A stretch of 62,236 nucleotides of DNA, counting the filler, from Hausera hauseri (lineage: Eukaryota), in NCBI GenBank assembly GCA_046269625.1. It is 11 parts of 11 records of this genome, joined end to end, with 100 filler letters (N's around TTAATTAATTAA, not from the genome) between each part and the next. Parts side by side here need not be neighbours in the genome. Positions count along the whole stretch, not along the records: positions 27,367 to 31,782 come from JBJURY010592778.1; positions 31,883 to 36,156 come from JBJURY010663774.1; 9 more parts are not named here. The stretch is one strand, 5' to 3'. A model generated the notes under the pieces. That model had not been told where the DNA came from and ran no database searches. It worked only from the letters and a program-made list of their open reading frames with translations. Positions within the stretch are counted from its first letter, which is position 1. Each line of letters starts with the position of its first letter. Shown here in pieces: positions 1 through 51,703 of the stretch. A program made the position numbers and the translations under genes.

Positions 1-1
1 T

Positions 2-517
2 GAAGGATTCGTTTGAAATTTCGTGTATTAGTGGCGTAGACTTTACACTTGGTTTTTCGTTGTGATATTCTTTGAGTGTGTTATACATATTTAATATAAT
101 TAAGGCTTTATCTCTCGTTCTGGTTGGGTATTTGATGTTATTGAATTTTAGAAAGATTTGCTTTTGGGTCAGTGTTCTTTTTGGATTAATATGTTCGTTA
201 TAGAATAGGTCACGAATGCCCACTATTTGATCAATGTTGAAAAGGGCTATTTGGGAATTAGTACTAAACACAGTCATCTCCATTATCATTTTTCCTACCA
301 ATTGATGTCGAATTGTAGGCCAGATTTGGTATTGGTCGGCTTGGCCGATTAAATCTGATTCTCTTATTTCAGTTATTTGGGTGTTATAGTTATCTACGCG
401 TTCTCGTGGGGCAATGAGCTGATCGAAGATAATTTTCCCGTTCAAATCCATTATAGTAATTTCTATAAGGGTAGCTCTTGAACGACTGTCTTTCTGATTG
501 TTGAGGTGGAGGATAAT
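2..517 (-). pseudogene. DEDDh (REX4/ISG20-like) 3'-5' exonuclease-like domain in LTR element A polyprotein; runs off window edge
   Basis: Hand translation (absent from the ORF track): RATLIEITIMDLNGKIIFDQLIAPRERVDNYNTQITEIRESDLIG...IRHQLVGKMIM...IVGIRDL. This follows the REX4 pattern LARVSIVN..G.V.YD.YV.P.E.V.DY.T..SGI...DL...L.GKILVGH. The Exo I DxE is replaced by IILHLNNQ; in-frame TAG at 518-520. Confidence 0.75.
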
Positions 518-554
518 CTATTCGTTGTTGTGTAGTTGGTGCTGATTCATATAT

Positions 555-884
555 TGTTGTATGAACCAGGCTAGAAATCCATCCACCTCTACATTTTACC
601 CATCCTTCAACATTAGCCTTTAACGCTCTTGTGTCAATTTCTATATTTCTTTCTACTTCCTCTTGATTTGGGTTTACTCAGTTCATTATCATTATTTTAT
701 ACAAGAGGTAGGACATAGCTGTTACGATTTTATTTCGAGATATGCCAGTTCCCATCATTCTCGAAAGAATATCTGTTTCCTGTATTTCGTTTATCCTCTC
801 ATCTATAGGAATGTCAGCAAACTGTTCACTAATTTTTGAAATATCATTTCTAATAGCTTGCATCAATGAATTCGGTATTTGCAA
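555..884 (-). pseudogene. Bcl-2-like domain (BH3/BH1/BH2) in LTR element A
   Basis: ORF 678-884 gives BH3-like LMQAIRNDISKISEQF and BH1-like MMGTGISRNKIVTAMSY. Reading past the TGA gives BH2-like EGWVKCRGGW, then a frameshift to FLAWF (compare WIQDNGGWDAFVELY in BCL2). Confidence 0.65.
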
Positions 885-2005
885 ATTGTATTGAATTCAA
901 CGAATGCATTATGCATTCTTGCTAACAAGGATTGTAATAATGTTGTTAATGGTACATTGTCCACATCATATTCATCCTCTGTTGTCAGAAATCTCCGGAC
1001 AACTTTATCGTCTCTGGAGTTTCTACCTTTGAGTTGATACAATTTTGTCGTTCCTTTTGGTCTTCCGCTATTTCTTTTATCCGTTTGTATTTGTTCTGAT
1101 ATAAGCATATTTATTTCAGTTTCTACTGGTTGAGCTTGATATTGATGTTCAACTTCTTGTATTTCTTTTCGCCTGACATCAGTGATAATTTCATCGATTA
1201 TCTCATGTTCTGACTGTCTATAGGTAATACATACCGGATTATATCGATTTTCCCAAATACCTACTTCGTATAGAGTTTTGTAATCTATCAACGTTCGTCC
1301 ATAAATGCGTAACTCCAACTCTCCTTGAGACTGACTTATTTTGTTGACCCTCTTTTAATATAGCTATTGTATCTAGTGATCTTATTCTTAGAACATGGAA
1401 GTCCTGATTATACTGTTGGAGGGTAACCATTACTTCGGGGTTTTCTCCAACTGCTCTCACTCTATCAGCATAACGATAAATTATATATCGCACAACATTT
1501 TGATATGGACTTGTGCCAGCTGCATACATCAGCAACAAGTTTAGTAAATGAACAAATTGTTGATGTGTGATTGTTGGTAACAATAGCATAGAAAGGTCTT
1601 GTCTAAACTGAACGCCATCAATTAGTTCTTGAATAGCATAATTTAATATTTTCCGGACTATTTCTGTGCCATCCTGATCTAAATCTACAGATGGAGATTC
1701 ATAACTCGGAGATTTTTCTTTCGTTCTCTTTTTCCTTATTCTTTTTATTTTCTCCTTCGGTTCATTTTCTCCACTTGATTTACTCTTCGCTTCCACTCTC
1801 GGAAGGTACATTCAGTTCTGGGGTCCTCAATTCCTCTTCTTGTATTAAGGGTTTATCCTTCTTTTTGACCCTTTTCTTTTCAGTATCTGATTCAGATGCA
1901 GGAGTCTTTTTAGGCCTGCCAACAACAGGAGCAATGAGTAGACTTTCGTCATTCATTTTCTGTCTCCTTTCACAAATTTGTTGCTCCTTTAATTCAAGGT
2001 ATTGC
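863..2005 (-). pseudogene. Unknown polyprotein segment of element A: charged linker, helical domain, AT-hook-like GRP motifs
   Basis: Overlapping ORFs 863-1318 and 1239-1811 on the same strand as Gag; motifs VVGRPKKT (~1905-1930) and NSGRPKGT (~1050-1075). Confidence 0.45.
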
Positions 2006-3118
2006 TATTTTAGTTCAGCTATTTTGTCTTCCTCTTCTACTATATTAGTTTTACTTTCTTTTAGTTTAGATCTAATCTTCAGCTGTAACTTTTCAATAGT
2101 TTCTTCTGGTTCTGTATCTGTAAGTTCATGCTCGTTATCAGTGTCAGATATATTGCCGACTATATCAACATTCTTTTTCTTCTGACTTGATTGTCCTTGG
2201 TTGGGACAGGAACGAGCCATATGTCCATATTTTTGACATACAAAACAAGAATTGCCCATCTTGGTTAACCGGAGGCTTTTTCATTGCAGGTTTCTGAGGC
2301 TGGTTTTGCCAAGAAACCCTCTTCTGCGGCTGCTGTTCCGGTTGATTCGAATATTTTTGAAAAGGCTTCTGCTGAAAGTTTTTCTTCTGTTGAAAATTTT
2401 TCGGTTTCTTATCATCATTTTTAAGATGTTTCTTTGTATTCTCAAGTCTCTCACTATTAACTTCAATCTTTCTTGCCTTACTGACGGCTTCTTTGTATGT
2501 ATCCGGATCTGCAACGATAATATAATTCTGGATTTCTTTATTTACTCCGTAACAAAATTGAGCCAGGAGGGCATCTTCCCTTGTATCAACATCTGCATAA
2601 GCTATCTGAGCCTATTTCTGAAGGGCACATGCAAACTCTTGCACGGTTTCGCCTTTTCGTTGACGTCTTCTATTGAATTCTCCAATTCGACCCTTTCCTA
2701 ACGGGTCTACTAAGAGCCTTTCCTCAAGAGCGTCCTTAAGACTAGCTCAATCAGCTTTGTCCTCTTCATCCTTTATTTGTGTATAAGCACTAAGTGTCAT
2801 GCCTTTGAGATGCAAGGGAAGCCTCTTCATCCTGAACTCGTCTGTCCAGCCAAAACTTTCAGAATACATTTCGTATTGCATAATGAATTCTGCATAATCC
2901 TGATCCGGTTTAGCCTCATATTTGTCCATTGGAAGCACCATGGTTCCTGATAAGTTATTTCCTAGGCCTTTACCTAATCCTGAATTCGACATTTCTGGAT
3001 TCTCAATCAAATTTATTTCAGGATTTTCGTCTAAATCGGGACTACTCCTTGCCGAATCAGTACGTGAAGTTGTGTTATTAGCGTATATACGTTTACTTCG
3101 TAAAGGATACGACGCCAG
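2005..3118 (-). pseudogene. gag: Ty3/Gypsy Gag (capsid domain plus CCHC zinc knuckle), disrupted
   Basis: DYAEFIMQYEMYSESFGWTDEFRMKRLPLHLKG...RRQRKGETVQEF...LLAQFCYGV (retrotransposon Gag); CFVCQKYGHMARSC knuckle; internal stops. Confidence 0.85.
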
Positions 3119-3123
3119 TGTGC

Positions 3124-3141
3124 CTCCTCACTCGGGCACCA
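3124..3141 (-). promoter_or_regulatory. Primer-binding site of element A (TGGTGCCCGAGTGAGG; possibly elongator tRNA-Met)
   Basis: TGG-initiated motif 1 nt inside the LTR's terminal CA; tRNA identity is tentative. Confidence 0.7.
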
Positions 3142-3142
3142 G

Positions 3143-15525: not shown

Positions 15526-15796
15526 TGCACCTGCACATAATCAATCAAGGTGCAACTCGATGTGCTCTATCGATTAGCACTTTATCCCGATCGATTTGAT
15601 CAATACTGCACTGTGCAGCGATCGATTTGTCAAATGTGCAAAAGTGCCCTTAGCAACGGTGCCTAACGGTACCATTGCCTAGCACTTTATAGATCAATTG
15701 TGCTCCGGGTGCACTATCGATCGGCACATGTGCAAAATCGATTTATCGATTAACCCCCCGGGGGTTCTGTGCCCGAATCCCCATTTTCTCCCTACT
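15526..15796. mobile_element. Polinton/Maverick terminal inverted repeat (TGCAC/ATCGAT-rich family) ending in ...CTACT, inserted in Gypsy integrase
   Basis: Homologous to 27367-27592, 45510-45907 and 56015-56400; all end in CTACT (5'-AGTAG on the other strand, the canonical Polinton terminus). Confidence 0.8.
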
Positions 15797-18700
15797 TCTG
15801 ATCTCAATGAAGTGTCTCTGGGCCGCTAGTATGGTTTCGTCTGTAGGAATATTGTCCAGCTCAGCCAGCTCGAATAATGATCTGATAGAAGTACCAAATA
15901 ATGCTTCTGCAGGAGAGCAGCCTGTAGACGTAGATTGTGTGTTCCGCCAGCCAAGCGGAACGTACGGATGGAGTGCAGTCCAACTGCGATTGGATTCAGC
16001 AAGGATTTTGAGAGACGTTTTCATCATTCGGTGAAAGCGTTCGAGAACGCCATTCGATTGAGGGTGATATGGTGACATGTGAATGTGGTTAATACTCAAT
16101 CGATTTACAAGAGCTTTGAAGAGGTTGGATTCGAACTGTGGGCCTTGGTCCGAGATGATGTGGCGAGGTGATCCAAACCTGCTGATCCAAGTGCGGATGA
16201 AAACGCCTGCGATTGTTTCTGTGTTGGTGCTCCGAAGCGGGATAGCCTCTGGCCATCGCGAGAAACGGTCCATCATTGTGAGAATGGACTGATGGCCGTT
16301 GTCTAAGTGTAATGGGCTTAAAAGGTCAATGTGAACAGATTCGAAAGGAGACGTGCAGGAAAAATGAAATAATGGTGGCTTTAGGTGCTTAGTAACTTTG
16401 TATTTTTGGCATGCTACACACGGCCTAATCCATGCCTGAACGTCAGAGCGCATCGATGGCCATACTACTTGGTGTTGTAAGAGTCGAAGAGTGGCCTTGA
16501 CACCGGAATTATGCAACAAATGGATGCTGTGGAATGCTTCTTTTTGAAGCGATTCAGAAAGCATGACTTTATAATTATTATTAGGTTTGTAAATGTCAAA
16601 GGCCACACCGTCGGTGGTTTTGCACGATTCAAAAGATTTAAGCATGTCAGGAAGTGGCTGGTTTTGTTGAAGTTTGGATTGAGGAAAAATTGGAGTGGAA
16701 TCAATCGAGCTGATCGATCGGGACAAAAAGTCAGCTACTAAATTGTCGATTCCGTTTATGTGCTTAATTTGAAAATCAAACGTGGACAAATACGATATTT
16801 GCCTCTCCTGACGTGTAGAAGGCGATTTCATGGTGCGAATTTGAAGCAAGGGCTTGTGGTCCGTTTTTATTGTAAAGGTTCGTACGGTTATCAGATGTTT
16901 AAAGTGTTTTACGGCAAGGACCATTGCAAGCAACTCTCAGTCAAAGTTGGAATATCATTCTTCTTGTGCTGTAAATTTTTTAGAGAAGAATTCTAATGGC
17001 TCATGGGATCCATTTTTGACTTAATGGAGGACAGCACATGTAGCTGTTTTGGATGCGTCCGTGGTTAAGAAGAGTTCTGCATGGAAGTCTGGATAGGCCA
17101 GGATTTCCACGGATTTTAGATTGTCTTTGAAGTGATCGAAAGCGTTGACTAGCTTGGCAGTCCATTGAATAGGCTGTTTCTTCTTGCCAGAGCTTAGTGA
17201 TGCAAATGGAGAGGTTAGAGTGAAGCAGTGTGGAACGTACTTATGAATAAAGTGCAAGGTTCCGAAAAAAGAACGCATCTCTGTTGATGTACGTGGTAGT
17301 TGTATGTTTTTCAGCTGCGTGATGCGGTCTGGCTGAGGTGAGTATCCGGAGGAGCTAATAACATGTCCTAAGAAGTTGACCTTATGTTGAGAAAAGGAGA
17401 ATTTAGAAAAATTGATTTGCAAGTTGTTTTGGTGCAAGCGTTGGAAGATTATACGTAAGTGTTCAGAGTGCTGCTTCGAGGAAGATGATGCATTTAAGAT
17501 ATCATCAATGTAGGGATAAGCGAAGTCGAAACCTCATAGGACTGTATCAGTATGCCTTTGGAAGGTCTGGGAAGAGCTACTGAGTCCAAAAGGCGTAAAA
17601 AGGTATTCGAAAAGGCCAAAAGGTGTAATGACAGCCGTTTTCGGAATGTCTGCTGGGGCCACCGGAATTTAGTGGTATGCTTTGTGTAAATCAATGCAGG
17701 AGAAGATCGTTGAACCATGGAGCCTGTGAAGGATGTCGTTGATTAATGGTAGACGGTAGACATCCATTTTTGTTATGGTATTGAATTGGCGGTAATCACC
17801 GCATGGGAGAAAGTACCATATTTTTTGGAACCACATGCAGTGGTGAAGACCACGGGGATTTGGATCTTCTGATTATTCCTGATCTTTCCAGTTCGAGAAA
17901 TTCAGCGTCCACTGCCTGTCTGCGGCGAGGCGACAGCAAGCGTACCTTTTCACGTATTGGTCTTTGGTGTGCTGTTACTATGTGATGGAAGGTGGATTGA
18001 GGTGGTATGAATGATTTGTCCTTCTGCAGCGGACGCGTGCAGGAGGATGAAATGTGTTGCTGTAGATCAGAAGGCAACGATGAAAAGTTATCCAATGGTG
18101 TAGATGCATCGTGACTGGATGCAGTTGAGGTATGAGTTGTAGACGAGGTGTTATGACTGGGTGGTATTTGGTGCAGGATGTTCATGTTGAAGATGGTGTT
18201 TGCAGCTGTGCTATTAGTAATAGGCACCACGCAGTTGGCAATATTGTATTTGTTGCCGTAGTGAAAATTTCTGTATAATGTATTATTATAAAAATGATTC
18301 AAATCGAAAGTCGTTTTTTTCAGTATTGACTTGTTTGAGGTGATCGCCGGTGTGGTCACCGAAATGTTGCTAATTTGATTAAGATTATTTCCGCACTTTA
18401 AGTAACATCGTTTGCAATCTACAAGTAAATTGTAGTGGGACAGAAAGTCCGAACCCAATATAAGTGTGCATACATTGGCTATTGCAAATTTCCATGTGAA
18501 GGTGTTTGCGAGGTGTGGAAGAGTGAAAGTTAATTTGGTAACTCCAAAAATCTGTAAGGATTCACCGGATGCAGTGAACAGTTGCTTTTGTGAAGTGCAA
18601 TTGTTTTGTATCTGTTGTGTTGGTGACAGTAGAGAGATTGCTGTGCCGGTGTCTATAAGAAAGTTAATGTTTTGCATTGTGGAAGTGACGACTGGTGCTT

Positions 18701-20212
18701 CCAACGTGAAAACAGCAAAGAAAATGTGGCGGCTGTCTTTTTGCAGGTTGTTGCCTTTGCTAGGACTTGCCGTGTGTCCTATCGGCGAAATTAGTTTTTT
18801 GTAGTTGGTGAGTTTTTCCTACTGTGTTGTATGAATTTAGTAGTGTTGGTCTTGTTGTGTGTGTTGTAGGTACAGCCAGGTAGGCATTTTTGTGCTTTTG
18901 TTCTAAATTTTGAGTGGTAGATGCCAACAATGTTGCTTGTATTAAAATTGGGGGAGTAAAATTTTCAACCGATGCAGCATTTCTGAGCATTGTTACCAAA
19001 TTTGCTATGATAACAGCAAATAGACGTCCGCGCGGGCGAAGGCGACCGTCTTTGATGTTGATTAAATACGTTAGGGGAAACAGCCCTAGAAAAACCTCGT
19101 CGAGATAGAGTTAATTCGTTTAATTTTTCATTTATGTTGTTAATTGTATTCTGTAACTTTTCATTTTCCGTGCGTAAGTGCGCAATTTGTTGCTGCAGCA
19201 TTGCATTTTTTGTTGTTGATCTGTTGTTAATGCTGCATAGATAGTTGGTGCTGCATGTGAGTGCAGTACTTCGTATGCTTTGTCTGCCAGTTCGGCTAGC
19301 TTGTCAAGAGCCGTGGAGTCTTCTATCACAGTTATCAAAGCTCTTATTTAAAGGGGCAATGCATTTAAGAAGTAGCGTCGAATAAGTTTGGGATTGTACT
19401 AAAATGTTACGCCAAGGGTGTTGAGGTGAGACAAGGATGTGCGTAGGAATTCAGAAGGCTTCTAAAGGGCCATGGCGTTGTCGTTAAAGAATCTTTAAAT
19501 GATGGAGTCGATTGAAGGCTCAGTAAGCTTGAGAACGGCATTATGAAGTTAAGCATATGGATCAGCGTGCTGAAGGCTATCAATGGTATTGGTAATCTTA
19601 GTTTTGATGGAAGCTGGTAAGTGGAAAAAGAGGCTGTTGGCTTTGGCTAAAAAGTCGACGACGTTTTGTGATTGGAGCCAGAATTAGTGCAGTTTTACAC
19701 AAGTTTGAGTAGAGTTTTGACTGTCGAGGAAATATTCTGTGCAGGGTAAATGAGTGAGGAGTGTGTGTTGTGTAGAGATGTTGGAAGGGCTGTGCTTGGG
19801 TAAATGAATGACGTGGATCTGTGGTTTGGTAAGTTTGTACGTGGTATCAATTGTGGGTGATGAATCCATGTTACCACGGATACGGAAGTGGATGTGAATA
19901 CAAATGTGGGTTGACGATGATTGTAGAGTTCCAGCGAGGGGTATTAGAGATCCGTTGTATGTGAGGTAGAAATCAGACGAGTGGAGTAAGGCAGAGATGA
20001 AGTTGTGAATGTCTGCATTGTGTAAATGCAGTGCTGTGTATGTGTATATATATTTGTTATTTAGAAAAAGAAAGACGGAGAAGGGAGAGGTGATATGTCC
20101 GGGGGCGTGCTGCGGGACAACAGCGAACGGCGCCGTCTGACCCACCGGCGCAGGATGGGCGGCAGGGACTTCAGCCTCGTTGCGGCGGGTCCAAAATTTC
20201 GGGGTGACCGAA
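15797..20212 (-). mobile_element. Ty3/Gypsy element B copy 2 (CsRn1-like): Ubl-gag, protease, RT, RNase H, integrase; degenerate, no LTR visible
   Basis: CHCC Gag motif CCYHSKFGNNAQKCC; protease FLIDTG; RT/RNase H; integrase HSIHLLH...CVACQ, VHIDL, DRFSRWPEA, SDQGPQFES, PQSNGVLERFH. Degenerate tRNA-Trp-type PBS CGGTCACCCCGA at ~20199-20210. Confidence 0.9.
19870..20085 (-). other. Ubiquitin-like domain directly N-terminal to Gag of element B
   Basis: FSVFLFLNNK...DFYLTYNGSLI...TLQSSSTHICIHIHFRIRGN|MDSS resembles ubiquitin QRLIFAGKQL...TL...STLHLVLRLRGG|M. Confidence 0.55.
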
Positions 20213-20214
20213 TT

Positions 20215-21360
20215 CCTCCTCAAAGGACGTCTAATTATTCTCGCAGTTGACCCAATGAATTTCTTTTTACAAACCATACATTTGAATTTCCCATCGTCAA
20301 CAAATGAAAATAATTTATGTTCAAAATTAAAATTATTCTTTGTGTCTAAACCGGAACTTTCAGAATCACCTTTAAATTCGGATTTTGGGGATTCTTCTGA
20401 TGTTAGAGACACTGATAGGGGAGCGATTAGAAGATGGAACATATCCCTTATTGTCTGAGTGAAGAGATATGTTAGGATTGTAAAATGTAGGTGAACTGGA
20501 AGCAAGTTCATCGGATAAAAATAAACCGGCTTTTTATTTGAACATCACTTCCTTTTCTGAGAAAGTCGTTTAAGTGTTTGAGATTGACTAGAATCGAAAG
20601 GTATAATTCTTTTACTATTCGAGTTTATTAATCCAGAATTCTCAACTACTAACATATCTCTTTTTGTATCTGTTTTGATATTTGATAAGTTTGGAGTTTC
20701 TTTTGAGTAATTATCTGAACTTTTATCACAATTTTTACTTAAGCTCAATCGTCTTATTTTACATTTTTCAGTGAAAGTTTTAGTTTTTCATCGTATATAT
20801 TATTATCGCTGGACTGCTGAGAATCTAACATATTTTCCGAGCGTCGTTTAAAAATTACTTTTTGTTGATTGTTCTTCGACTTTTGTTCAGCATGGTTTTA
20901 TTCATATCACTGATAATTCTTAAGTTTCTCGTATCTGAAGTAGTATTTGCAATTTTTAACCAAGAATACGGCACAGTTTTTTCAATGTTGTCATAAAGAT
21001 AAATTGTGATATTCCTTAACTTTCGTATCAAATTTAGTTTTATTATTTATGTTTAGTATTTGAGATAAGTAATAATTATTATCATGCCATTTTGCTAGTA
21101 CAACATCACCTTTTTGAAATCCGTAATTAGTTAAGACAACTTTCAGATTAGACGAGTTAATAAATTGTCTCCAATTTCCCGAAGTGACGTCTATAATACG
21201 GCTGAAAGATTCCTGATCTTTGAGAAATAATTTATTATCTACAATATCTAATATTTCAGCTTCAGTCCAATTTCCATAATCATCTACAACTTCAATCTGA
21301 TCACCAATTCCGACTAACGATTGTTGATAATTTTTATCCGTATCATTTTCGTTGCTATAC
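20215..21360 (-). pseudogene. PHF20/PHF20L1-like tandem Tudor protein, frameshifted and truncated at its zinc finger
   Basis: IGDQIEVVDDYGNWTEAEI and FQKGDVVLAKWHDNNYYLSQI...(frameshift)TIYLYDNIEK; later FVDDGKFKCMVCKKKF just before the Gypsy junction. Confidence 0.6.
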
Positions 21361-22325
21361 TGCATGCAATTATAAGACGAAAATTTTGTAAAGACCAGGA
21401 CGATTATAATTTGTTGAGATATTACGAAAAGAAATGTTACCTGACACCAATTGTAGTCCCCATGAATCGTATCCGCTAACGTGAAAGCTGCGTTAGATGA
21501 AGGTACAAGCGATAATTCAAAAATTTCATCAGGCAGTTCATCAACATAATTCATATTAAAATGATTAAGGAGAAACANNNNNNNNNNNNNNNNNNNNNNN
21601 NNNNNNNNNNNNNNNNNNNNNTTAATTAATTAANNNNNNNNNNNNNNNNNNNNNNNNNNNNNNNNNNNNNNNNNNNNCACAGAAAAAAATACATTTATGT
21701 GAAATACGATTTAACATTAATTTTCATCTATAAATTTGTGTTGTTTATGATAGAGTAAACACTTAAATGCATCATTTGTTAACTCCAGTTAACTCCTTCT
21801 AAGAGATATAGATTAAACTATGGGCTAGTTTAAATGGAGAAATTGCATAACATATTAATGAAATGAAGAACATTAAGCCAAAGTTATGATATATCAGTTC
21901 TAAGAATAACATTTGGAATGAATGTCTGAGGTTTTTCACAGAAGAAGATGAAGACTAGTCTTCAGTCAAAAAACATGGCTGAAGCAAGCCATTACATAAT
22001 TTCATTTACACGTCAGCACCAAGCCATGTGCAGCACTTATCATGGAACTCCACATCTCTTAATTACTGGCGCCTCCTGTCATCTAAGTCAGTGGCTGTTT
22101 TCCAAGCCATTCCCTTGTTTTTTATTGTTCTCTGCTCCTTTTACATGGTATCTTGCTTATAGTGGCCATGTTCTTTAAACTATCTCATCTTAGATCATGG
22201 CATTCATGGAAAGTGCATACTGATTAAACCAATTTAGATGGGGGTAATTCTTATTTCATTTAATTTTTTAAAAAAAATGATTATAACGTGTATAGAGTGA
22301 ACTAGTGAAACTTTCTTGTTTTCAG

Positions 22326-27366: not shown

Positions 27367-27592
27367 AAATCCAATATTATTGATTTTTGCACACTTGCAC
27401 ATGTGCTGCACACTTGCACTGTGCACAAATCGATGCACCCTGATGTGCTCTATCGATTAGCGGCACCGTTGCTAGGCACTTTATGCATCGATAGTGTACA
27501 GTGTGCAATATCGATCGGCACATGTGCAAAATCGATTTACCGATTACCCGACGCCCCCTGGGGTGGGACAGAAAGCACATTTCCTCCCTACT
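27367..27592. mobile_element. Polinton/Maverick TIR (TGCAC family) ending in CTACT
   Basis: Close match to 56125-56400; ends CCCTACT at 27592. Confidence 0.8.
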
Positions 27593-28023
27593 GACATAGT
27601 CTTCATTTGACAGAAAGTATCCATTCTCCAGTTCATTAAGAAATTGTACACAATCAATTTTGCTACTGCATATTTCTTTTGTGAGCCATTTAATTTCAGC
27701 TTCTAAGTCTATTTTTGAAGTATATGGATAATTTAGGAAAAACATAATTAAATACATAACATTTGTCACAGAAATTGTTGAAACAATGCTATTAGCACAC
27801 CTTTATTTATATCCAAATAAAAGGGGTGGGAATAGTTAAACCCAATCCACCCCAGAAAATGCTTTGTCTACTGCTTTCCTATTGGTCAGTTTTCCTTACC
27901 CCGATGACGTGTTCTCATCTCATTGGTCCACTTTCCCTCCTCCGATGACGTGTTTTGCGCTGATTGCTAACTTTCCTTCCCTGGCGGGGGGTGGTTGGGG
28001 TAATGTCCTCCTTTCCACCTACT
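27593..28023 (-). mobile_element. End of a second, different Maverick-like element (AGTAGGTGGAAAGG...) with start of a first ORF
   Basis: CCACCTACT ends at 28023; GC-rich end with paired TGACGT and ATTGG boxes; resembles the AGTAGGTAGAAG terminus at 33176; cuts off the glycoprotein. Confidence 0.6.
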
Positions 28024-29625
28024 TATATTCAAATTCTGTGATGACCTATTTCTCGGATATTTTGAAATAATACGTGTTTTCTTACTGCTTCCAGATCTGT
28101 CAAGGAATGTAATCCACTGGTGGGAAGTACTCTATTAACTTTAAACTTTATACCTTTATCCACTGGTAATAATCCAATCGTCTGTGGTATATTCATCATA
28201 GTTGGTTGGCGTGTTTTAGTCCATCTTCCATCGTTGAGTTTGAAGGCCGGATAGAAGTCTTTATAACATAGTACGAAGCTGATTTCCGTAGGTAACAATA
28301 ACTTTCAGGTAATAGGGTCCACATATCCTACTTTAATTATGTTTTTATCGTTGTATTGGACCATTAATTCGTTCGTGCAATTTGCTTTTGGTGATGTTAC
28401 TGGCATTACCTCTATCGGTGGGCATTGGTACACATGAAGTGTCTCACCTTGTGCTCTACTAAATATTCCAGGGCGATATCCCATAATTAAGGCAATATGT
28501 TCGGAAAATTCTCTGGCTAATATCAAGTCGTGCTGGTTCAATTTGTGAATGATTTTACAGTCTCGCAGTACCATCGTCTTACACAACTCAACTAAATCCA
28601 TTTTTGCGGTGTAATAGATATAATCTATCTTGTTATTCGTATATAGTTACCACTTTATATCTTCGGTTGGTAACTTTCCTGTATTTGCAATAGTTATGTT
28701 TGTTACAAAAGATCTTTATTAGATGTAGAATAAACGGCATTCGATCCACAAGTTGATACTGCTCCTTTACGAGTTAGTACGATTCTGGCCTTGTCACTGG
28801 ATGACATTAGAACTTTCAGGGAAGTGGTTTGTTTTAAGGCTTGTGAATAGGTAAACTTATATTATGGTTATGCACAGGTTCTTGATATTCGTCATCATAA
28901 TATAAATCACCTTGTACTTCGTACATAGACACCTGTTTAAGGAAGACTAATGGACATATCATGATCGTTTTTCCCAGACTAATGTAGATTCTCCCAGGAT
29001 ACACACTCCGTCAGAATATGTGCAGGATGGTGCGGTTAACATTTTTCCTGTGATTGCATCGAAATTTACTTTACATTCCTTTATAGTGACGGTATAATCT
29101 TCTATTTGTACTATAGCGGATTCTTTTTGTCCATTTGTCATCATACTTTTTCCTTTACAAGCTCCACCGTATCCGGGCCATACTTTTCCGGCTGTAACTA
29201 CACGTGAATAAACTCGTTTTCCTATACCTGCCTGTACTGGCTGTTGAAGGCCTACATGAATTGAATCAGTAGCTTTTCTACAATTTTCAGCTGTTATTGT
29301 CACGAGTTTAGGTAGTCCTTGTGGAATAATTACTGAATTCCACGAATTATAGCCGCAGTTATAAGCGAATACAACTTAATTAACTTGACATTCCTTTACT
29401 TGAACGTGTTGGTAACTGATTCTTTGATACAGATTATAGTTATAAGGACCTTCTTTCTTTACTAATATTGGATTAGCGCTTTGACATTTACCTATATCCA
29501 CCAGTGAAAGTCTAGCTGTTATTTCCGATCTGGAACAATCATAGGCTTCTGACGCTTTCATGGTTTTTATACTACTCACAGCTATCAAGTATAGTAGCAG
29601 ATAAATAATTTCTACTACCCAACCT
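28024..29625 (-). pseudogene. env: Chuvirus-type (gB-related) envelope glycoprotein, disrupted and 3'-truncated
   Basis: Hydrophobic signal IIYLLLYLIAV, then AYDCS...LSLVDIGKC...LYQR...VKEC...CG...GACKG...CTYSDGVC...TLVW; later YTNNKIDY...RDC...GYRPG...GETLHVYQC..IEV...CTNELMV...DPIT...C...PAFKLNDGRW. Confidence 0.8.
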
Positions 29626-29659
29626 GAGACATTGGTATCCTTGGGGTACATTAATCTAG

Positions 29660-30043
29660 TGGGGTTAAATTTCTTCAGGATTTTATCCCAACCACCTTGT
29701 TTAGTTACCCAATCTTTTGTTAGTTTATCCATGTAATTGGCTAAGTCCCTTACTATATGGTATAACTTGGCATAGACCTCTGTTTGGTTTTTGAAGCTAA
29801 CCACTATGCATCCTTGTGCCATTAGCAATCGGTTTTGATCACATTTCTTTAATAATCGTGTTAAGGCTTTATTTGAATTCCTTTCAGTTTATACTTCTGA
29901 AGCAATTTTGTAATTTGCGATGAGAAATTTCTCGCGGTTTCTATTATGGATTGCAATGAAATTGTTGTAATTGTTGGTATCTTTTTGAGTTGATTTGGAT
30001 TAGCTTTCTTGACTAATTGTTCTAGGAGTTCATGGGTTGTCAA
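29660..30043 (-). pseudogene. Bcl-2-like domain directly upstream of, and in frame with, the glycoprotein
   Basis: BH2 LANYMDKLTKDWVTKQGGWDKILKKF; weak BH1 LLKKCDQNRLLMAQG; weak BH3 LQSIIETARNFSSQ. Confidence 0.65.
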
Positions 30044-30049
30044 TATTAC

Positions 30050-31200
30050 CTTTAATACACCTGTTTCGTTTTAATCCTATGTTCTCGTAGCAGGATTCTT
30101 TGTTTGTTCATTTTCATCATTACTAATAGTAAATCATTGGAAATTATCGTATAATACATGTTCTAACATTTCCCGTTGTTCCTTACGTTTTCGCGACAAA
30201 GGTCTTTTTTACTTCGCCTTTCTGGCGTTTCTTCTTCGGGGTTTTCTTCATCATCACTTATTGGAATAAAATCACATTTTCGTGGTCTTCTTCACTACTT
30301 CTTAGTACCAAATTCCATGGTAATCTGATGAATCTTTCTGGTAAGGAGTCCATAGTCCACAATGTAGTCATTGTCAGCGGCTAATCTACCATAAACATCA
30401 GTTTTCGATATTATATTAGTTTCTAGATTTAATTCATTTAATACTTTCCTTCGGTGGTCTGTAAATTTAGTGAACATTCCTGATGTTACTTCGATTACTT
30501 GTTCCCGCTCATTGGTTTTAATTTTTATACTTATAATATATGGTTGTTTTTGTCTGTGTTTTCGTCTTAAGTCTCTTCCAAGAGTTTTAAGTAACTTTCT
30601 TGCTGCTAAAAAGAGAATACATTGTCTTTTGTTAGAGGTAGGAGTAATGGTGCGCATTCTATTCGGCTAGTTAGTGGTAGTAACTCATTGTCGTAAAGCA
30701 TTCCATACCTCGTTAGGTGCTGTACTGGTCATTTGTAGTTTAGCTTTAACTATTTCAATTATTGATTCTGAGGGTTCGCCGTGTACTATGGAACCTGGGG
30801 AAATATTTATTTCTGGGATATTTCTTGGGTTTTCAATTGGTAATAACGTAGTTTCGGGATATTGTACTACGTCTGCTGTAGGAATGAGTTTATCGTCTTC
30901 TAAGACTTAAAACACTTCATCTTCGTCTATGTCTTTGGTCTTGTTTGTTACCTGTGGTTTCCTTTTAGATGTACCTCGTTGTATTGAATCCCTAATGGTG
31001 TCAAGTAATGTCGGTCTTTGAGGTGGAACATTAGATTGGGACAGTGGTGCGAGTAATCTGTCGTATAAGGTTCTATCCATTTTCCAGTTGGTCTTGTTCT
31101 GACGAGCTCATGTGAATAGTCGTCAGTGTCCATATCGGGGTGTCTTTGAGCGACTGGTTCGATTGCTGGGATTGCTGTTGCTTCGGTAGTTTTTTAAGTT
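30050..31200 (-). pseudogene. Unknown polyprotein segments between exonuclease-like and Bcl-2-like domains
   Basis: Consecutive same-strand ORFs 30948-31133 and 30295-30657; no family recognised. Confidence 0.35.
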
Positions 31201-31665
31201 TCCGTATTGCTGGTAAGGCTATTCGTAGTGTTTTCTGGCTTTCTATTACCCATGGTACATTGTATTCAACTTGTATAAGTTTTCCAGTATTTGTCGAGAT
31301 ATCTTTGCGCCATAATTTCTGAGTTATGACCATGATAAACATTTGTACGTTTTGTCGGTTTGTTCCATATCGTAAAGGGTGGTTAGATTTGCTGGATTTA
31401 TTTTCAGTGTATTCAGTAAATCTGGCAATTGGCGTCCGATGATTACTTTTCCTGGTAGATACTTATTCTTGAATTTGCTTACCGATTCTTGTCGTTGAGA
31501 GTTGGACCATCTACTGTATTCGGTATATTTTCTTGTGTCTGGTATGTTCCGGTACACATGAATATTAAGAATTGTCTTTCCTTCTACGTTTTTGGCAGTT
31601 ACATGAGTAAATCCTTTTTGATCTTCTTTGGTTTTGCATCTATCTGTGAATATTATTTCTCTTTC
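31200..31665 (-). pseudogene. Divergent DEDDh exonuclease-like domain
   Basis: IIFTDRCK...FTHVTAKNVEGKTILNIHV...YLPGKVIIGRQLPDLLNTLKI...LYDM follows VALDCE...LARVS.VN..G.VLLD..V...L.GKILVGH.L..DL..L...IRDT. Confidence 0.55.
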
Positions 31666-32150
31666 CTATGTTATAGGTTCATCCGCAGATAATATGGGTG
31701 TTTCCTTAAGCAATTGTATTAAGTATAACGAGCAGTTATCTAGTGGTTAGAACTTACAATCTCCTTCGTAGGGATAATTGGGNNNNNNNNNNNNNNNNNN
31801 NNNNNNNNNNNNNNNNNNNNNNNNNNTTAATTAATTAANNNNNNNNNNNNNNNNNNNNNNNNNNNNNNNNNNNNNNNNNNNNTAAACTTTTTATAGCAAT
31901 CGCCAGTGTTCCTTTTCTGCTTGTGGCAAAGTGATTTAATTGTATAATTGGCAAATGTTGCTAATGGGATGACTAATAAATACTGGGCACTTTTTTGCTC
32001 TGATCTATGATTATGTCTGCCAAAATTGTTGTGAACGTCTACTGTAGTATCTAATGAGCTAAAAAAGAAAGGATGTCAATCCTGCGCTAAGTTCTTGTCA
32101 ATGCCTTTAAATAATAAGGCTTATGAATCAAACTGAGCTATTACTTTGAA

Positions 32151-33858: not shown

Positions 33859-34230
33859 TCATAAAAGTGACTGTAATGTAAGCCATAGTTGGCAGTAATG
33901 TCCACATAGTATAGTCACTGGATGTTGATAATGAAGTCTATTATATTCAAAACGGTACGATGATAATGATTGTCTTTCAATTTGAGAAAGTAACGGTGAC
34001 GGATAGTAAAATCCAAGCGGATCGAATACTCTAATGAAGGTCGGATGGATGTACATAGCAATACAATATTCACCCGGCAACGATGAAGTGTGTGTATTGA
34101 CAATGAAGCCCCCAGTTTGTCGTAAATCACGCGGCACACAGTTTAGTCGAAACACTCCACGAAAATTTGCGTCAAAGAGCACTTTTCCGTAGTGACTGAG
34201 CTCAGTGGAGCTAAATGTAAAATGTGATTT
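33859..34230 (-). pseudogene. Adenain-like cysteine (maturation) protease; catalytic His lost
   Basis: FRGVF...FIVNTHTSSLPGEYC (normally GEHW)...VFDPLG...YN...Q...CGHYC. Confidence 0.85.
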
Positions 34231-34322
34231 AAGCATAATAGTAGTAATTTTAAAAATAAATTTCTTCATAGTACGACGAAGAAGACGAAGATTATGAAAA
34301 CGTGAGATACATGGGATTTTAT

Positions 34323-35475
34323 TTATTTTTCCACCTCGGCATTAAATACACCGTAAATGTGCATCACACTATATTGTTCCAACGCTTTAGCAAAGTGAAC
34401 CTTCAATCGTAGGTTTCCTTGCTGAGGTAGTTGAGTCTGTTCAACGTCATAATCCGAAGCCAGGACAAAGGTGAAGAAGGGATAGGTGGACTTGAACAAA
34501 TCCATCGATATGCCATTGTTGACAATTTTGTTCAGCAAACCCATGTTGCGCAAGATAGATTGCATATATGTGCAAACGTAATCACCGATCTCAAAATCCT
34601 GCTGGTATGTCTCAACGAAATCAGCATTCTTACCCAAACTGATGTAATTCATGTTGCTATGGGTAAACGTTTCCGAATCGGTGGTATAACTGCCCGTTTG
34701 TTGACGAGTCCTTTAAAATGTAACAAGCACAAATTTCGGCAATCGCATGTCACCAAACAGTGCATCTTTGTAAAACGTAGTTGAATCTTTGGGTATAGCA
34801 TAAAACACGAGTTCGGTGCGTTGTAATGGGTAACAGGCATTTTGTGTTTCAAAGCCCAATAGATGTCTTATGAACATAGATGGTTCCACCTGTACACGAC
34901 GTACGTATAATCGTGCCTCGATAATTTTCAGTATGGGTTTGAGATTTGCAACTGAGGTTTACAAACAAAAGACATTGTCGTTGCGTTTGAGCCGAATCAT
35001 GGCTTTAACACCAAACAGTAGGTATTTCGGATGATCGAAAAAGTCAAACTACAGCAGTCCACACATTGCAAGCGCTTTTGATTCTGCCACCCATGCCTGA
35101 CGGTTTGCTGCAGTGGCGTCATATCCGATTTTTTCATCAAATGAGTCGTTTTCGTATCTGCACTGGTTCAGTTAGTGGTTTAATATTGTATTGACTGCTG
35201 TTGCCTTCAATTTTGACGCTGTTTAGAGTCAGCGAAGCCTCATGCAACAGTGTGAGGAAAAGGTAATTGACCTGTGTGACAGTGTCTGTTTCAGCGAGAA
35301 CCGTTGATGCATCCTTTCAACAATGACTTTTGCATAGAGTAGCGTATCGTTCAAATCAAGATATTCATTGTCCGATGCCATAATGTTGAATTGAATGCTG
35401 CATTGTCAATAACAACTTGTGGCGCTGCTTTGTTAAATAAAAACAATGCAGATTTTGCAGTGCCATTTGACTATG
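34323..35475 (-). pseudogene. Maverick major capsid protein (PY, hexon-like), frameshifted with internal deletions
   Basis: AKSALFLF..AAPQVVI; IQFNI...EYLDLNDTLLY; KYLLFGVK..IRLKR; ARLYVRRV; GNLRLKVHFAKAL. Confidence 0.8.
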
Positions 35476-41446: not shown

Positions 41447-44400
41447 AAAAGTAATTCAGTTGTGCGGCTCCTATGCTTATTGCACATCCAAAGCACATAA
41501 TCCGCAACAGTGCCATGAAACAATGCAGCGGTATTATGGACACAAATGCAAAAGGATCCAATATTATTATTATGTCCGGGATGTGAGACTGTATGCGGTG
41601 CAAATTACATACAGTTCTATCATGATCACAAACATCATTTGAGTCATTTTGCATCAAAGTCCAAAAAGATTATCTTCAATGCGCAACATAATCTTGATGC
41701 ATCTGCTTCGCAGTATTCTGCTTCACAGTATGCCGAGGGGGCTGCAGCAGCAGCTGTGAAGCATATTATATAATTGAAACGCGCAGCAGCATCATGCGCA
41801 GCAGGATCAGGCGCAGCCGCATCAAGCGCAACCACATCAGGCACAGCGGCTCCACCAAAAAGTCAAAGGCAGCGGCCAGTTGATGCTGCAGTTTTAAAGA
41901 GCAAAGTTCGCAGATATGTCATTGCAGCAACTGGCCAAACAACCCTCAAAGTGTTCCTTTTACACACAGAAGAAGAAGCAATAGGTATTCTCCAGGACAA
42001 CATGGCGGAGCTCAAAGCCATTAAGGTTAATATGAAACTGGAGGCCACATACATCAATTTTGATGACGATGAATCCAAAAGGGCCTTCAAGACCCTAAAT
42101 AGGCCAATATTTTGAGCCACCAATATAGTAGAATGGCTGCATGAGCAACATAGGAAGCTTATCCATGAGGCTGGACTCTGTCAGCCGTCAAGAGACTGCG
42201 TATGCATGTGCACAAGTACTCCCTCATGCGGGGCAGCTCCTTATATACAGCTCCCTGAGTGGATTCGCAAAAAAGGCATGCATTAATGTCCTTAATGATG
42301 ACAACATGTGCTTCATGTATGCCATTCTATGTAAACTCGTACGGGATCAACATAATGCTTCACGAGTTTGGCTATATAAGGATGTGCAGCACAACTATGA
42401 TTTCCAATGTATTAAGTTTCCTACATTCTTGGATGAAGTCAAAAAATTTGGGCTACTCAATAATATATGAATCAATATCTTTGGATTGGATGAGGAGGAC
42501 AAATTCTATCCGCTACAAATATGTAATGCCGAATTGGAAGATCATAGGGATCTGCTCCTACTAGACGATGGAGAAAAGAAACATTACGTATGGGTCAAGA
42601 ACTTTGAGCGTCTAGTCAGATCCCAAATAACAAAGCATTAGCACGGAATCGAAATATGCAAAAGATAATTGTCCTATTTCAGTGGCAAGTTAGCTGTGGA
42701 GAAGCTGAAAGAGCACAAGATGTACTGCAACAATAATTATTGTATCATGCCAGAATTTACCAAGGAGGACTACATCGAATTCAAGGAATTCGTGAAGAAG
42801 ATCAAGGTCCCAATAGTCATATATTGCGACTTTGAAGCGATCCTGCGTCCATTTCAGAGTTGCAGCCCTAATCCCTAACACAGCAGCACGACGGCATACA
42901 AATATTATGAACTTTCATAATATTGTATGTATGCAAAAGGACTGAACAGTGAATCATATCTATTCAGGGTCCAAATGCAGCAGCACATTTTATGAAACGA
43001 CTTGAAGACATGGCTCATAGGCTTGGAGATATGTTGCAGCAGAATAAGAATAAAATGAGCATGTTGAAGAAGCAAGAAGAAGAATGGCACAGGTCAACAG
43101 CATGTTACTTGTGCGACAAGTCCTTCACAGTGGAGAATTGGAAAATCAGGGATTATTGCCATTTTACAGGCATATATCGAGGCGCAGCCTTCAACAATTG
43201 CAATCTATGTTGCTGAACATGTACATATGTGCCTGTAGTGTTCCATAATCTCAGTGGCTATGATTCCCATTTCATTGTTCGGGAACTGGGCAACATTGAA
43301 GGAAACATTGATGTAATACCCAACAGTGTAGAAAAATACATCAACTTTACCAAGCATGTTGGGAAAATCAGGCTTCGCTTCATAGACAATTTCCATTTCA
43401 TGTCGTCTTCACTTGACAGTTCAGTGAAGAACCTCCCTGCAGAAGAACTCAAGGAGACGAAACTGTTCTTTCTCACTGCATTTGGCCTAGTCAAATGGTA
43501 AGGCGTGTTTCCCTATGACTATATAACATTATGAGAAACACTGGATGAGACCTCATTGCCGGCCAAGAAGGATTTTTAAAATATCCTCTCTGATTGCAAT
43601 ATCAATGATATGGATTACCAGCATGCTCAAAATGTCTGGCATGCATTCATATGCCGAACATTAGGAGAATACAGCAACATATACCTAAATACTGACGTGT
43701 TGCTTCTGACGGATGTCTTTGAGAGTTTCAGGGATGAAGAGCAATGCTTTGGATCCAGCTCATTTTTTTACGGCTCCAGGGATGAGTTGGGCAGTAATTC
43801 TGAGATATACCGGTATTATGTTGCAGATCATAAAGGATTATGACATGATCCTCATGATCGAGAGGAATATGCCAGGCCATCCACCGGCATAGCGAGGCCA
43901 ACAACAAGTATATGGCCGAATATGACCCAACAAAGGCATCTTCATATATTGCCTACCTAGATGCCAACAACTTATATGGATGGGTATTGCCATATGATGA
44001 CTTCAAGTGGGTCAAGCATCCCGAAGACATCTCTATACTGGACCTGGATACCAGTGGAGATACGGACTACATGCTGGAGGTGGATATGGAATATCCACAT
44101 AGCATCCACACAAGGCATGAACAGCTGCCTTTCCTCCTTGAGAGCAAGCCTTTGCTCCATGGAAAACATCGAAAGCTGCTCTGCCATTTGGATAGTAGGG
44201 AGAAGTATGTAGTCCACTACATAAATCTCCAGCAAGCGGTCAGGAATGGACTCCGCATTACGAAGATCCATCGGGCCCTGCAGTTCAGCCAGTCCATGTG
44301 GCTGCAGCCGTACATAGATCTCAATACGAAGCTGAGAGCTAATGTCAAAACGATTTCGAAAAGGATCAATTTAAACTGTATAATAACAGCGTTTTTGGCA

Positions 44401-45134
44401 AGACGATGGAGAATATCCGCAACAGGATTAACATCGATGTAGTCTCTGAGTAGAAGCGAGCAAAGAAGCTCATTGTCAAGCCCAACTTCCACAGCAGCAC
44501 CATTTATACGGAGAACTTGGTCAGCATCAATATGCGGAAAACATCCTTGCAATTCAACAAGCCAATATATGTGGGTATGTCAATACTAGACCTGTCAAAG
44601 ACCCTGATGTACATATTCCACTATGACATCATAGTCCACGCATTCCAGTCAATAAAACTGATGTACATGGATACTGATAGTTTCATCTATCAGATCCATA
44701 CTGAGTACATTTATGAAGACTTTGCTAAATTATCTCAGAATATGGATACGTCTGACTATCCGAAGGAGCATCCGAATTATTGAGTTAACAAGAAAGTCCT
44801 TGGGAAATTCAAAGACGAGGTGAGTGGGGCAGTCATCTCGAGATTTGTGGCTCTTGGGTCCCAAATGTATGCCCTTGATGTATGTGGCCAGATGAAAAAG
44901 AGAGCCAGGGGCGTTCAAAGGGCTACCTTGGCCAAGAAGATCGGCTTCGATGACTATGTGAGAGTTTTTCAGGAGCAAACTCATATCATATCAGAGATGC
45001 GAAGGATCCAGTCTAGGGCTCATGACACCGAGGCAGTAACAGTGCAGAAGAAAAGCCTAGATAGGATGGATGACAAAAGGCAGATCCTGGGTGATGGAAT
45101 AAGCACACTACCTCACGAGCATATGACACTGTAA
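41447..45134 (+). pseudogene. Protein-primed family B DNA polymerase (Maverick/adintovirus type, with endonuclease VII-like insert), multiply disrupted
   Basis: Exonuclease IYCDFEA, FHNLSGYDSHF, RFID; CYLC...RDYCHFTG.YRGAA..NCNL; polymerase YLDANNLYGW, KLYNNSVFGKTMEN, YMDTDSF, KKVLGKFKDE, DDKR. Confidence 0.92.
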
Positions 45135-45239: not shown

Positions 45240-45907
45240 ATGGACTTAGGCGTTTTCGGACATGGGGAATCGAATTCCGTTGTCAGATTTTTCGAAAAGT
45301 TCGAAATTCCATATTTGGGTCAAAAATGTTCCTATTTCGAATATTCGACTCGATATTCAAGATCTCCATACTCGGTTTCATATCTGTCCCTGCTAAATAT
45401 AATATCGATTTGTGATTCCTTAGGGAAAAATAATACCTATGGGAAGTCTGCCACAGTTTCACTTCGAGTCGATATTATTCGAAATTCACTCGATCGATTG
45501 AAATTATAATCACACATTCGTATAGTGCATCGTATTTGAGTTCAAACATACCCGGCCACACGTGGTAATTATCAATATTGGAATTATCGGAAAACCGATA
45601 TTATTGATTTTTGCACACTTGCACTTGTGTTGCGCATCTGCACAGTGCATATCAAAATGCGTATTGGTATGCAATATCGAATAGCACTTTGTCCCAATCG
45701 ATTTGATCAATTGTGCAATGTTTGTGTTATCGATTTGTGAAATGTGCAAAAATGTGCATAGGAACGGTTCCTAACGGCACCGTCGCATAGCACATTACCG
45801 ATCGATAGTGCTCCATGTGCACCATCGACTGGCACATGTGCCAATTGATTTATCGATTCGCAAACCCCCCGGAGGAGGTAGTGCAGATTTCCCATTTTCT
45901 AGCTACT
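45240..45907. mobile_element. Subterminal block plus TIR of the PolB element, ending in CTACT
   Basis: GAATCGA.TTCC...AGATTTTTCGAA.AGTTCGAA block shared with 55360-55460; TGCAC-rich TIR; CTACT ends at 45907. Confidence 0.8.
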
Positions 45908-46236
45908 GTGGTGGCCTTTCTTATTGACGATAGNNNNNNNNNNNNNNNNNNNNNNNNNNNNNNNNNNNNNNNNNNNNTTAATTAATTAANNNNNNNNNNN
46001 NNNNNNNNNNNNNNNNNNNNNNNNNNNNNNNNNGATTTTGTGGTGAGCGTGATTGAATATATTTATAATTATGCATGTAATTTGAACGAAACGTCTGCTT
46101 CGATGGGCGCAATTCTTTTTAATTGTGTAACTTTCTGTTTCCATTTGCATGATGAAAACAATAACGACTGTGTTGATATTTCCTTGGCAGGTGCGTTGAA
46201 GAAATTTGCTTCCTTTTTGCTAGTTGATCAACCGTC

Positions 46237-50900: not shown

Positions 50901-51703
50901 GTTTTTCTTTGCTGCTTCTAGTATTCCTGTGGTGATTTTTTTGTAATAGGTACTGGGATCAGTTTCTTCAATGTCTGTTAGTAACTTGTCTGTGTCGAGT
51001 GCGTATGTTGTCCAGTTGGTTTTTTTTATAATTCCAGAAGGTTCGCTTGGGTTGTTTGGGTCTTCCTGACCTTCCAATACTGACAAGTAGAGGTTTGTGA
51101 TCACTGCCCACATTATCAAGCACAGAAAGTGTGCACATGTCTAATAGATCAGTTGATGCAAGTGTTAGGTCTGGTCTGCTAGTAGTGTTGTGTGCTCTGT
51201 GCAAAAATGTAGGTGGGGAGTTTTTATTCTGTAGTAGGTGGAGGTTTGAGGAGTTTATTATGTCTTCAACTTCTTTGCCTCTCTCGTTTTGTCTGGCATA
51301 GCCTAGAATGGGTAAATGGGCATTAAAGTCTCCAGCTATGATTGTTTTGGTATAGTTTGGTTCAGAGATGTTTATGTTTTCTTTAGAAGAAGGGGGGCAG
51401 TAAATGTTTGTGATGTGGTATCTTGTTCCTCCCTTCCAAAGAAGTATTTCTTGTTTGTCTATGTTTGTGTTGCTGTTGTTCTCTTTAACCTCTGCGTGTA
51501 TATCGTTTCTAATGAGTGTCATTATTCCTTGGCATTTATTGCATCTGCATTTGTATTGCGTGTATCCTGTGATATGTATGTCTTTCTTAGGTAATAGTGT
51601 TTCTTGTAGAAGTGCTATGTGTATGTCGTGGTTTTTCAGTATAAATTCAAGTTCTTGTTCTGGAGGCCTAATACGTTAAGCTGTAGTATGTTGAGGTGGG
51701 AAT
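47949..51703 (-). mobile_element. I-group LINE (Ingi/Nimb-like): APE endonuclease, RT, RNase H, CCHC; (GAA)n tail
   Basis: AGDFNAH, PDLT, GSDH; KSPGPD, YRPISLTS, GLPQGS, YTDD; VYTDGS...QAEI...FTDSQS...WIPGHIGIRGNEKAD; CRHC...HFLLQC; only a few frameshifts. Confidence 0.92.

Follow-up and report, generated by a model that had tools for sequence, protein, structure and literature searches.

The question raised by this locus is whether an animal retroelement has incorporated a Bcl-2-like domain into its polyprotein, ahead of an envelope glycoprotein, and what such a domain could do there. The sequence analysed (the window) is a stretch of 62,236 nucleotides, filler included, from the Hausera hauseri assembly GCA_046269625.1. 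It consists of 11 short contigs joined by runs of N and is not one locus, and neighbouring open reading frames (ORFs) therefore give no context. The element studied here fills most of the contig at 27367-31782, on the minus strand, and runs up to the contig end at 31782. An earlier note on this DNA had described on that strand a DEDDh-like exonuclease domain, a region of unknown nature, a Bcl-2-like domain and a chuvirus-type glycoprotein, arranged as in a polyprotein. We consider that the element is most probably a dead fragment of an envelope-carrying Ty3/gypsy long terminal repeat (LTR) retroelement of the GAG-ENV-POL type, one branch of which has acquired a host-derived cassette between Gag and Env. 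Jointly with this identity, and with the same good confidence, the cassette would lie in the same frame and comprise a ubiquitin-like domain, a Bcl-2-like domain and, in some members, a degenerate exonuclease.

When the region 28968-29873 was used as query in a full HMMER search, 69 relatives (43,707 residues) were obtained, and 20 of the longer ones were scanned for domains. The homologue search provided an intact natural relative, P0004, a single ORF of 1963 amino acids with 69% identity over the query. The contig aligns with residues 615-1861 of P0004 in six colinear blocks (43-69% identity), between which the window copy changes frame at least five times, and 10 stops were found in eight blocks counted. 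The copy is a dead, decayed, 3'-truncated element fragment. Because it is frameshifted and stop-ridden when compared with the single ORF of P0004, the ORF 29376-29828, in which the earlier note had placed the hydrophobic stretch and the glycoprotein, is a decay fragment only. In fact, this ORF has a TTG start in the middle of the Bcl-2-like domain, contains just the C-terminal half of it (the N-terminal helices are in another frame, at about 30040-29879) and ends inside the envelope at a stop that P0004 reads through. The polyprotein reading itself holds, because P0004 is intact and colinear with the contig. In P0004 the glycoprotein is part of the same ORF, fused behind 1360 residues and not separate, which rules out a plain chuvirus endogenous viral element. 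The window also contains a second element of the same family, at 2-3141 on the minus strand of the contig 1-7344, a contig that matches another relative, P0012, at 65-84%.

The homology of the domain preceding the envelope to the Bcl-2 family appears to us very highly probable. An alignment of seven rows was built from the domains of four relatives and three window pieces, and PF00452 was detected in six of the seven (best E 2.5e-5), with 20.1 bits in P0005 and, in the window piece, 15 bits (E 0.037), below the curated cut-off; P0068 matches with E 0.002. When the profile was compared with 177,635 PDB sequences, the best match was Bcl-xL (E 2.5e-4), across the Bcl-2 homology regions BH1 and BH2 and in order, and 59 of the 60 matches listed were Bcl-2-family chains. 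In a leave-one-out profile prepared without P0004 and the window, P0004 scored 21.2 bits and the window 12.3, the best reversed decoy reaching 4.3. The BH2-type motif of the window copy, DWVTKQGGWDKI, is located at 29714-29679 on the minus strand, and the W..GGW signature is present in six of the seven rows, the seventh not covering that part. As a control for chance, the pattern [WY]xxxxGGW was counted in the six frames of the window, where it occurs three times, twice in these elements, and among the 69 relatives, where five of its six occurrences lie just upstream of the envelope signal. Foldseek with the low-confidence AlphaFold model of the domain gave the Bcl-2 family in all 45 matches listed, with a best E of 0.32 and a partly sequence-driven outcome, and in a viral structure library the top match of the same model was BALF1 (E 0.46).

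The domain is also among the best-conserved parts of these elements, suggesting that it was under selection. Between the window copy and P0004, identity is 75-76% in the Bcl-2-like domain, 62-67% in the envelope and 45% in the linker; between the second element and P0012 it is 87% in the Bcl-2-like domain, 86% in gag and 67% in the linker. The domain is kept in frame in P0004, P0005, P0010, P0012 and P0068, and those that were aligned are 15-19% identical to P0004.

The glycoprotein can be regarded as certain on profile evidence. PF24664 matches two pieces of the window copy with E-values of 3.9e-20 and 5.1e-22 (71.8 and 78 bits, the Pfam cut-off being 27 bits) and P0004 with 215 bits. The two motifs that had been singled out, AYDCS (29546-29532) and the GE......C pattern (GETLHVYQC, 28448-28422), are indeed found on the minus strand at the expected place. 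The class III fold resembling herpesvirus glycoprotein B (gB) is attributed to this type of envelope after the available text of PMC13524379. Envelope homology extends as far as 28024 and does not reach the C-terminal membrane anchor, with VITEFEYK as the final matching residues; P0004 has its second membrane helix at residues 1911-1929. The segment that follows in the window, 27594-28023, showed no match to P0004, no second copy within the window and no Pfam hit. It opens with AGTAGGT on the minus strand, and the next contig has the same letters on its plus strand, at 33176.

The nature of the carrier is revealed by the relatives. The envelope runs into a retroviral-type aspartic protease within the same ORF in nine of the 20 scanned relatives, and in four of these nine the protease is followed by reverse transcriptase (RT), RNase H and integrase. 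Several of the scanned relatives begin with gag or a zinc knuckle. gag is located upstream of the envelope in P0012, P0007, P0019 and P0056, and also in P0018, as judged by similarity to the gag of the second element; the start of P0004 is only gag-tail-like, and this protein ends after the envelope. P0012 comprises gag, zinc knuckle, ubiquitin-like domain, Bcl-2-like domain, signal and envelope in one protein, and in P0010 the Bcl-2-like domain, the envelope and the protease are joined. In a rapid tree built from 17 long envelope rows, P0004 was placed with 11 other polyproteins (Shimodaira-Hasegawa-like approximate likelihood ratio test, 96), apart from five stand-alone glycoproteins. The window piece pairs with P0004 in a 53-row tree, and P0005, a Bcl-2 carrier, adjoins the full-pol protein P0016 in the envelope tree of 17 rows (support 96). 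The Ty3/gypsy assignment is based on the Pfam domain content and order of the relatives, and not on an RT tree.

The LTR-retroelement host suggested in the earlier note, as opposed to a plain chuvirus insertion, was borne out by the relatives with protease and pol, and neither the contig nor any of the 20 scanned relatives showed an N or L domain. The BEL/Pao precedent that it invoked belongs to the wrong branch, since the relatives have gypsy-type pol domains and the envelope before pol. BEL-type elements are typically marked by the Pfam domains Peptidase_A17 and DUF1758/1759. Such domains were found in 0 of the 20 relatives, and with the envelope preceding the protease in nine of them, BEL/Pao was rejected. 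A relative with the envelope in last position exists outside the polyprotein group (P0047, one of the 20, with a chromodomain before the envelope). The proposed Bcl-2-transmembrane (TM)-Env precursor must also be redrawn, because the product begins with Gag and continues, in relatives, into protease and pol. No LTR pair was found on either short contig (27367-31782 and 1-7344); a site resembling a primer-binding site (PBS) is present in the second element.

Some relatives show additional features. Two to four tandem aspartic-protease domains follow the envelope in P0007, P0010, P0016, P0023 and P0056. By eye, P0016, P0021 and P0022 extend for hundreds of residues beyond the integrase, with an extra hydrophobic segment and a cysteine-containing region, and this C-terminal part is perhaps a second secreted or membrane protein. 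P0027 carries a mitochondrial ribosomal L47 domain ahead of its envelope piece and is perhaps a gene-prediction chimera.

The same modules recur, in different order, in the second element. The first 8 nucleotides of its PBS-like site complement the 3' end of tRNA types including Met_CAU, as listed in supplement 1 of PMC13524379. At 2-517, all three PDB sequence matches are to exonucleases of one type (ISG20L2, ISG20 and SDN1, E 0.21-0.51), and no Pfam hit was obtained there.

The two other cassette domains are less clear. A four-row profile of the region 30298-30555, with rows picked by eye, matched PDB entries named ubiquitin-like in 14 of 15 cases (best ubiquilin-2, E 0.008), and PF00240 was detected in P0012 (E 0.031); the window row alone gave no match, and its leave-one-out score was under the best decoy. 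This region is, as far as profiles can tell, a likely ubiquitin-like domain. A helical region lies directly before it (window about 30790-30600 and 1691-1440; P0004 950-1022, P0012 375-455, P0007 402-467), with P0012 and P0007 linked by 8.8 bits. The exonuclease-like stretch 31333-31665 corresponds to the second of two similar domains of P0004 (internal repeat, E 0.001). Its link to the ISG20-like domain at 2-517 is of 8.3 bits, tied with an unrelated stretch, the best decoy scoring 4.9; it has no Pfam hit, and its model (pLDDT 44, three strands followed by helices) had no meaningful Foldseek match. In an alignment by eye, D-x-E is not preserved in the first acidic motif (ExoI), where the window has FTDRC and P0004 has LAGRC, and the domain seems to have lost its catalytic activity. 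By eye also, P0021 has at about 115-295 a DEDDh-like exonuclease with apparently intact acidic and histidine motifs, directly before the envelope signal. Between the two exonuclease-like domains of P0004, at about 500-650 (the last 35 residues correspond to window 31782-31681), there is a beta-rich domain which, by eye, may recall an AlkB/cupin fold.

The hydrophobic stretch 29624-29568 has a Kyte-Doolittle 19-mer mean of 2.0. A segment of this kind precedes AYDC in all 21 sequences checked and, since 15 of them lack the BH2 motif, it is the own signal of the envelope and was not brought by the Bcl-2-like domain. The distance between BH2 and the segment is 23-56 residues in six sequences, and most relatives have small residues ahead of the AYDC start, as expected for signal-peptidase cleavage.

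From the domain order, the homologies and the selective conservation, a mechanism can be proposed whose topology, cleavage and function, taken together, have in our view an even chance of being right. The polyprotein would be made on the endoplasmic reticulum (ER), with Gag and the accessory domains remaining in the cytosol. The hydrophobic segment would serve as an internal signal, with signal peptidase cleaving immediately ahead of AYDC, where the envelope begins; the ectodomain would enter the lumen, and the second membrane helix would bring protease and pol back to the cytosol. The upstream piece would thus remain in the membrane by its C-terminal end and expose the Bcl-2 domain to the cytosol, which is the topology of cellular Bcl-2 proteins. 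This topology follows from the order Gag, accessory domains, hydrophobic segment, ectodomain, membrane helix and protease/pol. The Bcl-2 domain would most likely protect the producing cell while particles are made, by binding BH3-type host proteins of apoptosis or autophagy; apoptosis inhibition by a domain that has lost the NWGR and BH3 motifs is something that we infer by analogy. Viral Bcl-2 proteins have tail anchors and roles in autophagy according to the available text of PMC5691641.

The more specific claims of the earlier note fared unevenly at the domain level. Its Bcl-2 call agrees with the motif in place and with the profile match to Bcl-xL, with BH1 and BH2 in order, and the structural check gave weak values only (E 0.32, pLDDT 45). 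The unknown region does exist, and holds the likely ubiquitin-like domain (profile E 0.008). For the DEDDh-like call there is the weak, indirect 8.3-bit link, with no Pfam hit and with the D-E-D-D-H residues not intact. Of the idea that the signal peptide doubles as the Bcl-2 tail anchor, the topology survives, and the segment proved to be an ordinary envelope signal.

Several observations weigh against a genuine, working Bcl-2 protein in a Ty3/gypsy polyprotein. On the side of the homology, every PF00452 score lies under the curated cut-off of 31.4 bits; a single-sequence search gave a best Bcl-2-family E of 0.52, ranked under three unrelated matches; one designed helical-repeat protein scored equal to Bcl-xL in the profile search; and the AlphaFold model, with seven helices, has low confidence (pLDDT 45). 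BH1 aligns by profile but is degenerate, its glycine being replaced when compared with Bcl-xL and its basic residue kept. With NWGR (BH1) and LxxxGD (BH3) in 0 of the 7 aligned rows, the domain is, by its motifs, a non-canonical Bcl-2 member. On the side of the carrier, the contig 27367-31782 itself contains no gag, pol or LTR, and none of the Bcl-2-bearing proteins was seen to reach RT itself, P0010 reaching the protease. In the second element the exonuclease-like domain, and not a TM segment, follows Bcl-2. Furthermore, among 17 relatives with at least 100 upstream residues, five have a BH2-type motif before the envelope and 12 do not, and the Bcl-2 carriers do not form one clade on the envelope tree (approximately unbiased test, p 0.029). 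The domain thus appears dispensable or mobile, and its distribution is compatible with a single gain followed by losses, or with an exchange of modules. Finally, a signal of the type used by the signal recognition particle directs to the ER and not to mitochondria. Taking identity and working together, we estimate the probability of our explanation as a whole at roughly 0.55.

The most serious rival, though an unlikely one, is that the Bcl-2 fold has taken on a new task as a scaffold, blocking innate-immune or stress signalling away from the BH3 groove, with the ubiquitin-like domain and the dead exonuclease acting as decoys. Such a role would explain why the domain remains conserved when NWGR and the BH3 motifs are lost in all members, and why it travels with ubiquitin-like and ISG20-like domains, and the vaccinia proteins A49, N1 and N2 provide a poxvirus precedent for the Bcl-2 fold. 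However, BH2 is kept in every member and so is the basic residue of BH1, and BH motifs may be missing entirely from viral Bcl-2 proteins (PMC7022251, available text), so that motif loss leaves the function unsettled. Structural tether, chance likeness and neutral cargo rank lower.

Improbable is the proposal that the domain plays a structural part, as a helical module facing the membrane which, together with the envelope signal, tethers Gag to the budding membrane and has no regulatory role. Placed in one frame after Gag and ahead of the hydrophobic segment, the domain would indeed anchor uncleaved Gag, and it is as conserved as gag; however, P0007, P0018, P0019 and P0056 pass from gag to the envelope without such a domain, suggesting that tethering needs none. 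Still less probable is that the likeness arose by chance, in a helical domain of other origin that has a W..GGW motif. The weak single-sequence scores (E 0.52 for the Bcl-2 family) and the low model confidence would be expected in that case, but several very divergent members each match PF00452, two of them over profile positions 6-100, the joint profile singles out the Bcl-2 family from the 177,635 sequences, and the predicted helix pattern fits. A captured host sequence carried as a functionless passenger, which would suit the patchy distribution, the degenerate motifs and the dead window copy, is very improbable, given that the domain is better conserved than linkers and envelope in two independent pairs and stays in frame in the five very divergent proteins named above.

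Returning to a cell-protecting Bcl-2 domain, a bolder version is doubtful, and we would bet against it: an infectious Ty3/gypsy lineage whose viral Bcl-2 is functional and would be the first such protein of a reverse-transcribing element, tail-anchored by the envelope signal, made one-to-one with Gag and Env and carried, as in large DNA viruses, in a swappable cassette for evasion of host defence, with the ubiquitin-like and dead ISG20-like domains as possible decoys. The coordinates of both elements are collected in Table 1.

Table 1. Features of the two elements, in window coordinates
Feature	Position	Strand	Evidence and remarks
Unrelated segment replacing the envelope end and all of pol	27594..28023	.	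Rich in CCAAT and ACGTCA repeats
Chuvirus-type (Monjiviricetes fusion, gB-like) envelope ectodomain	28024..29549	-	Four frame blocks; PF24664; 62-67% to P0004
Hydrophobic segment: internal envelope signal, putative C-terminal anchor of the upstream Gag/accessory piece	29568..29624	-	Hydropathy
Bcl-2-like domain	29670..30040	-	N-terminal helices 30040-29879, BH1-BH2 half 29873-29670, in different frames
Likely ubiquitin-like domain	30298..30555	-	76% to P0004; four-row profile
Poorly conserved linker and start of a helical region	30685..31107	-	45% to P0004 880-985
Degenerate exonuclease-like domain, N-terminal two thirds (tentative)	31333..31665	-	57% to P0004 653-762
End of the domain preceding the exonuclease-like domain (P0004 615-652)	31666..31782	-	50% to P0004; cut by contig end
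Second element: ISG20/REX4-type exonuclease-like domain, directly after Bcl-2	2..517	-	PDB sequence matches; contig end
Second element: Bcl-2-like domain	552..893	-	PF00452 E 0.0074, profile positions 6-100; 87% to P0012
Second element: helical region and ubiquitin-like domain	1208..1691	-	70-81% to P0012; profile matches
Second element: gag capsid (2992-2429) and zinc knuckle (about 2250-2200)	2200..2992	-	84% to P0012; Ty3_capsid E 0.022, zf-CCHC E 6e-5
Second element: PBS-like sequence after CA dinucleotide	3126..3141	-	About 150 nt before gag start

The remaining contigs of the window contain unrelated animal-type repeats. A short repeat family common to four contigs (27367-27593, 15531-15796, 45591-45908 and 55576-56373) suggests that they belong to one genome. 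Two copies of a gypsy pol region, 84-90% identical, lie on different contigs (4300-7305 and 16686-19371), and a non-LTR retrotransposon with endonuclease, RT and RNase H occupies 47970-51675 (minus strand). Polinton/adintovirus-like pieces are found at 33859-34341, 41835-44442 and 52813-54602, with a protease-like ORF (by eye), a DNA_pol_B_2 match (E 0.01) and 79% inverted copies between two contigs. There are also a coding stretch for a G-protein beta subunit of 203 residues without intron (58427-59038, minus strand; PF25391, E 3e-66) and an ORF with weak Tudor-domain matches (20994-21575, minus strand).

The element type and its envelope are already known. GAG-ENV-POL Ty3/gypsy errantiviruses with an envelope of the herpes simplex virus/gB type have been described in Nematoda, Bryozoa and Platyhelminthes (PMC13524379, available text), and the present elements resemble them in the gB-type, chuvirus-related envelope between gag and pol, in the Ty3/gypsy pol order of the relatives and in an ectodomain flanked by a signal or TM segment and a second TM segment. 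They differ in the in-frame cassette of ubiquitin-like, Bcl-2-like and exonuclease-like domains, a distinction drawn from the text of that source and not from sequence comparison: its main text does not mention Bcl, exonuclease or apoptosis, nor do its seven supplements mention Bcl, ubiquitin, exonuclease or apoptosis. The Anakin BEL/Pao elements (PMC7642597, main text) likewise are LTR retroelements with a chuvirus-type glycoprotein, whereas the relatives found here have a gypsy-type pol with the envelope before it. A divergent domain with a C-terminal hydrophobic segment in a viral element recalls the viral Bcl-2 homologues BHRF1, BALF1 and M11, poxvirus F1L and N1, and A179L of African swine fever virus, but those of large DNA viruses are stand-alone genes (PMC5691641, available text), and here the domain, known from sequence alone, would be part of the polyprotein of a reverse-transcribing element. 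Cargo of the exonuclease family is also known in LTR elements, as DEDD-type accessory ORFs (PMC5408684, PMC6338049, main texts); unlike those DEDDy ORF3s, which follow pol and have intact catalytic residues, the domain described here is ISG20/REX4-like, degenerate and in frame before the envelope. The term Bcl is absent from the main texts of PMC7642597, PMC5408684 and PMC6338049. In a literature search whose scope left out most subscription papers and Repbase, we found no earlier description of Bcl-2 in a retroelement. What appears to be new is the Bcl-2-like domain within such an element.

This domain would represent a very divergent new Bcl-2 branch for structure studies, and it offers a concrete test of whether the gB-type errantiviruses are true viruses. 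If it is kept under selection in a Gag-Env-Pol element, invertebrate retroelements would carry accessory genes directed against the cell-death or immune pathways of the host, like complex retroviruses do, and this would imply that cell death restricts such retroelements.

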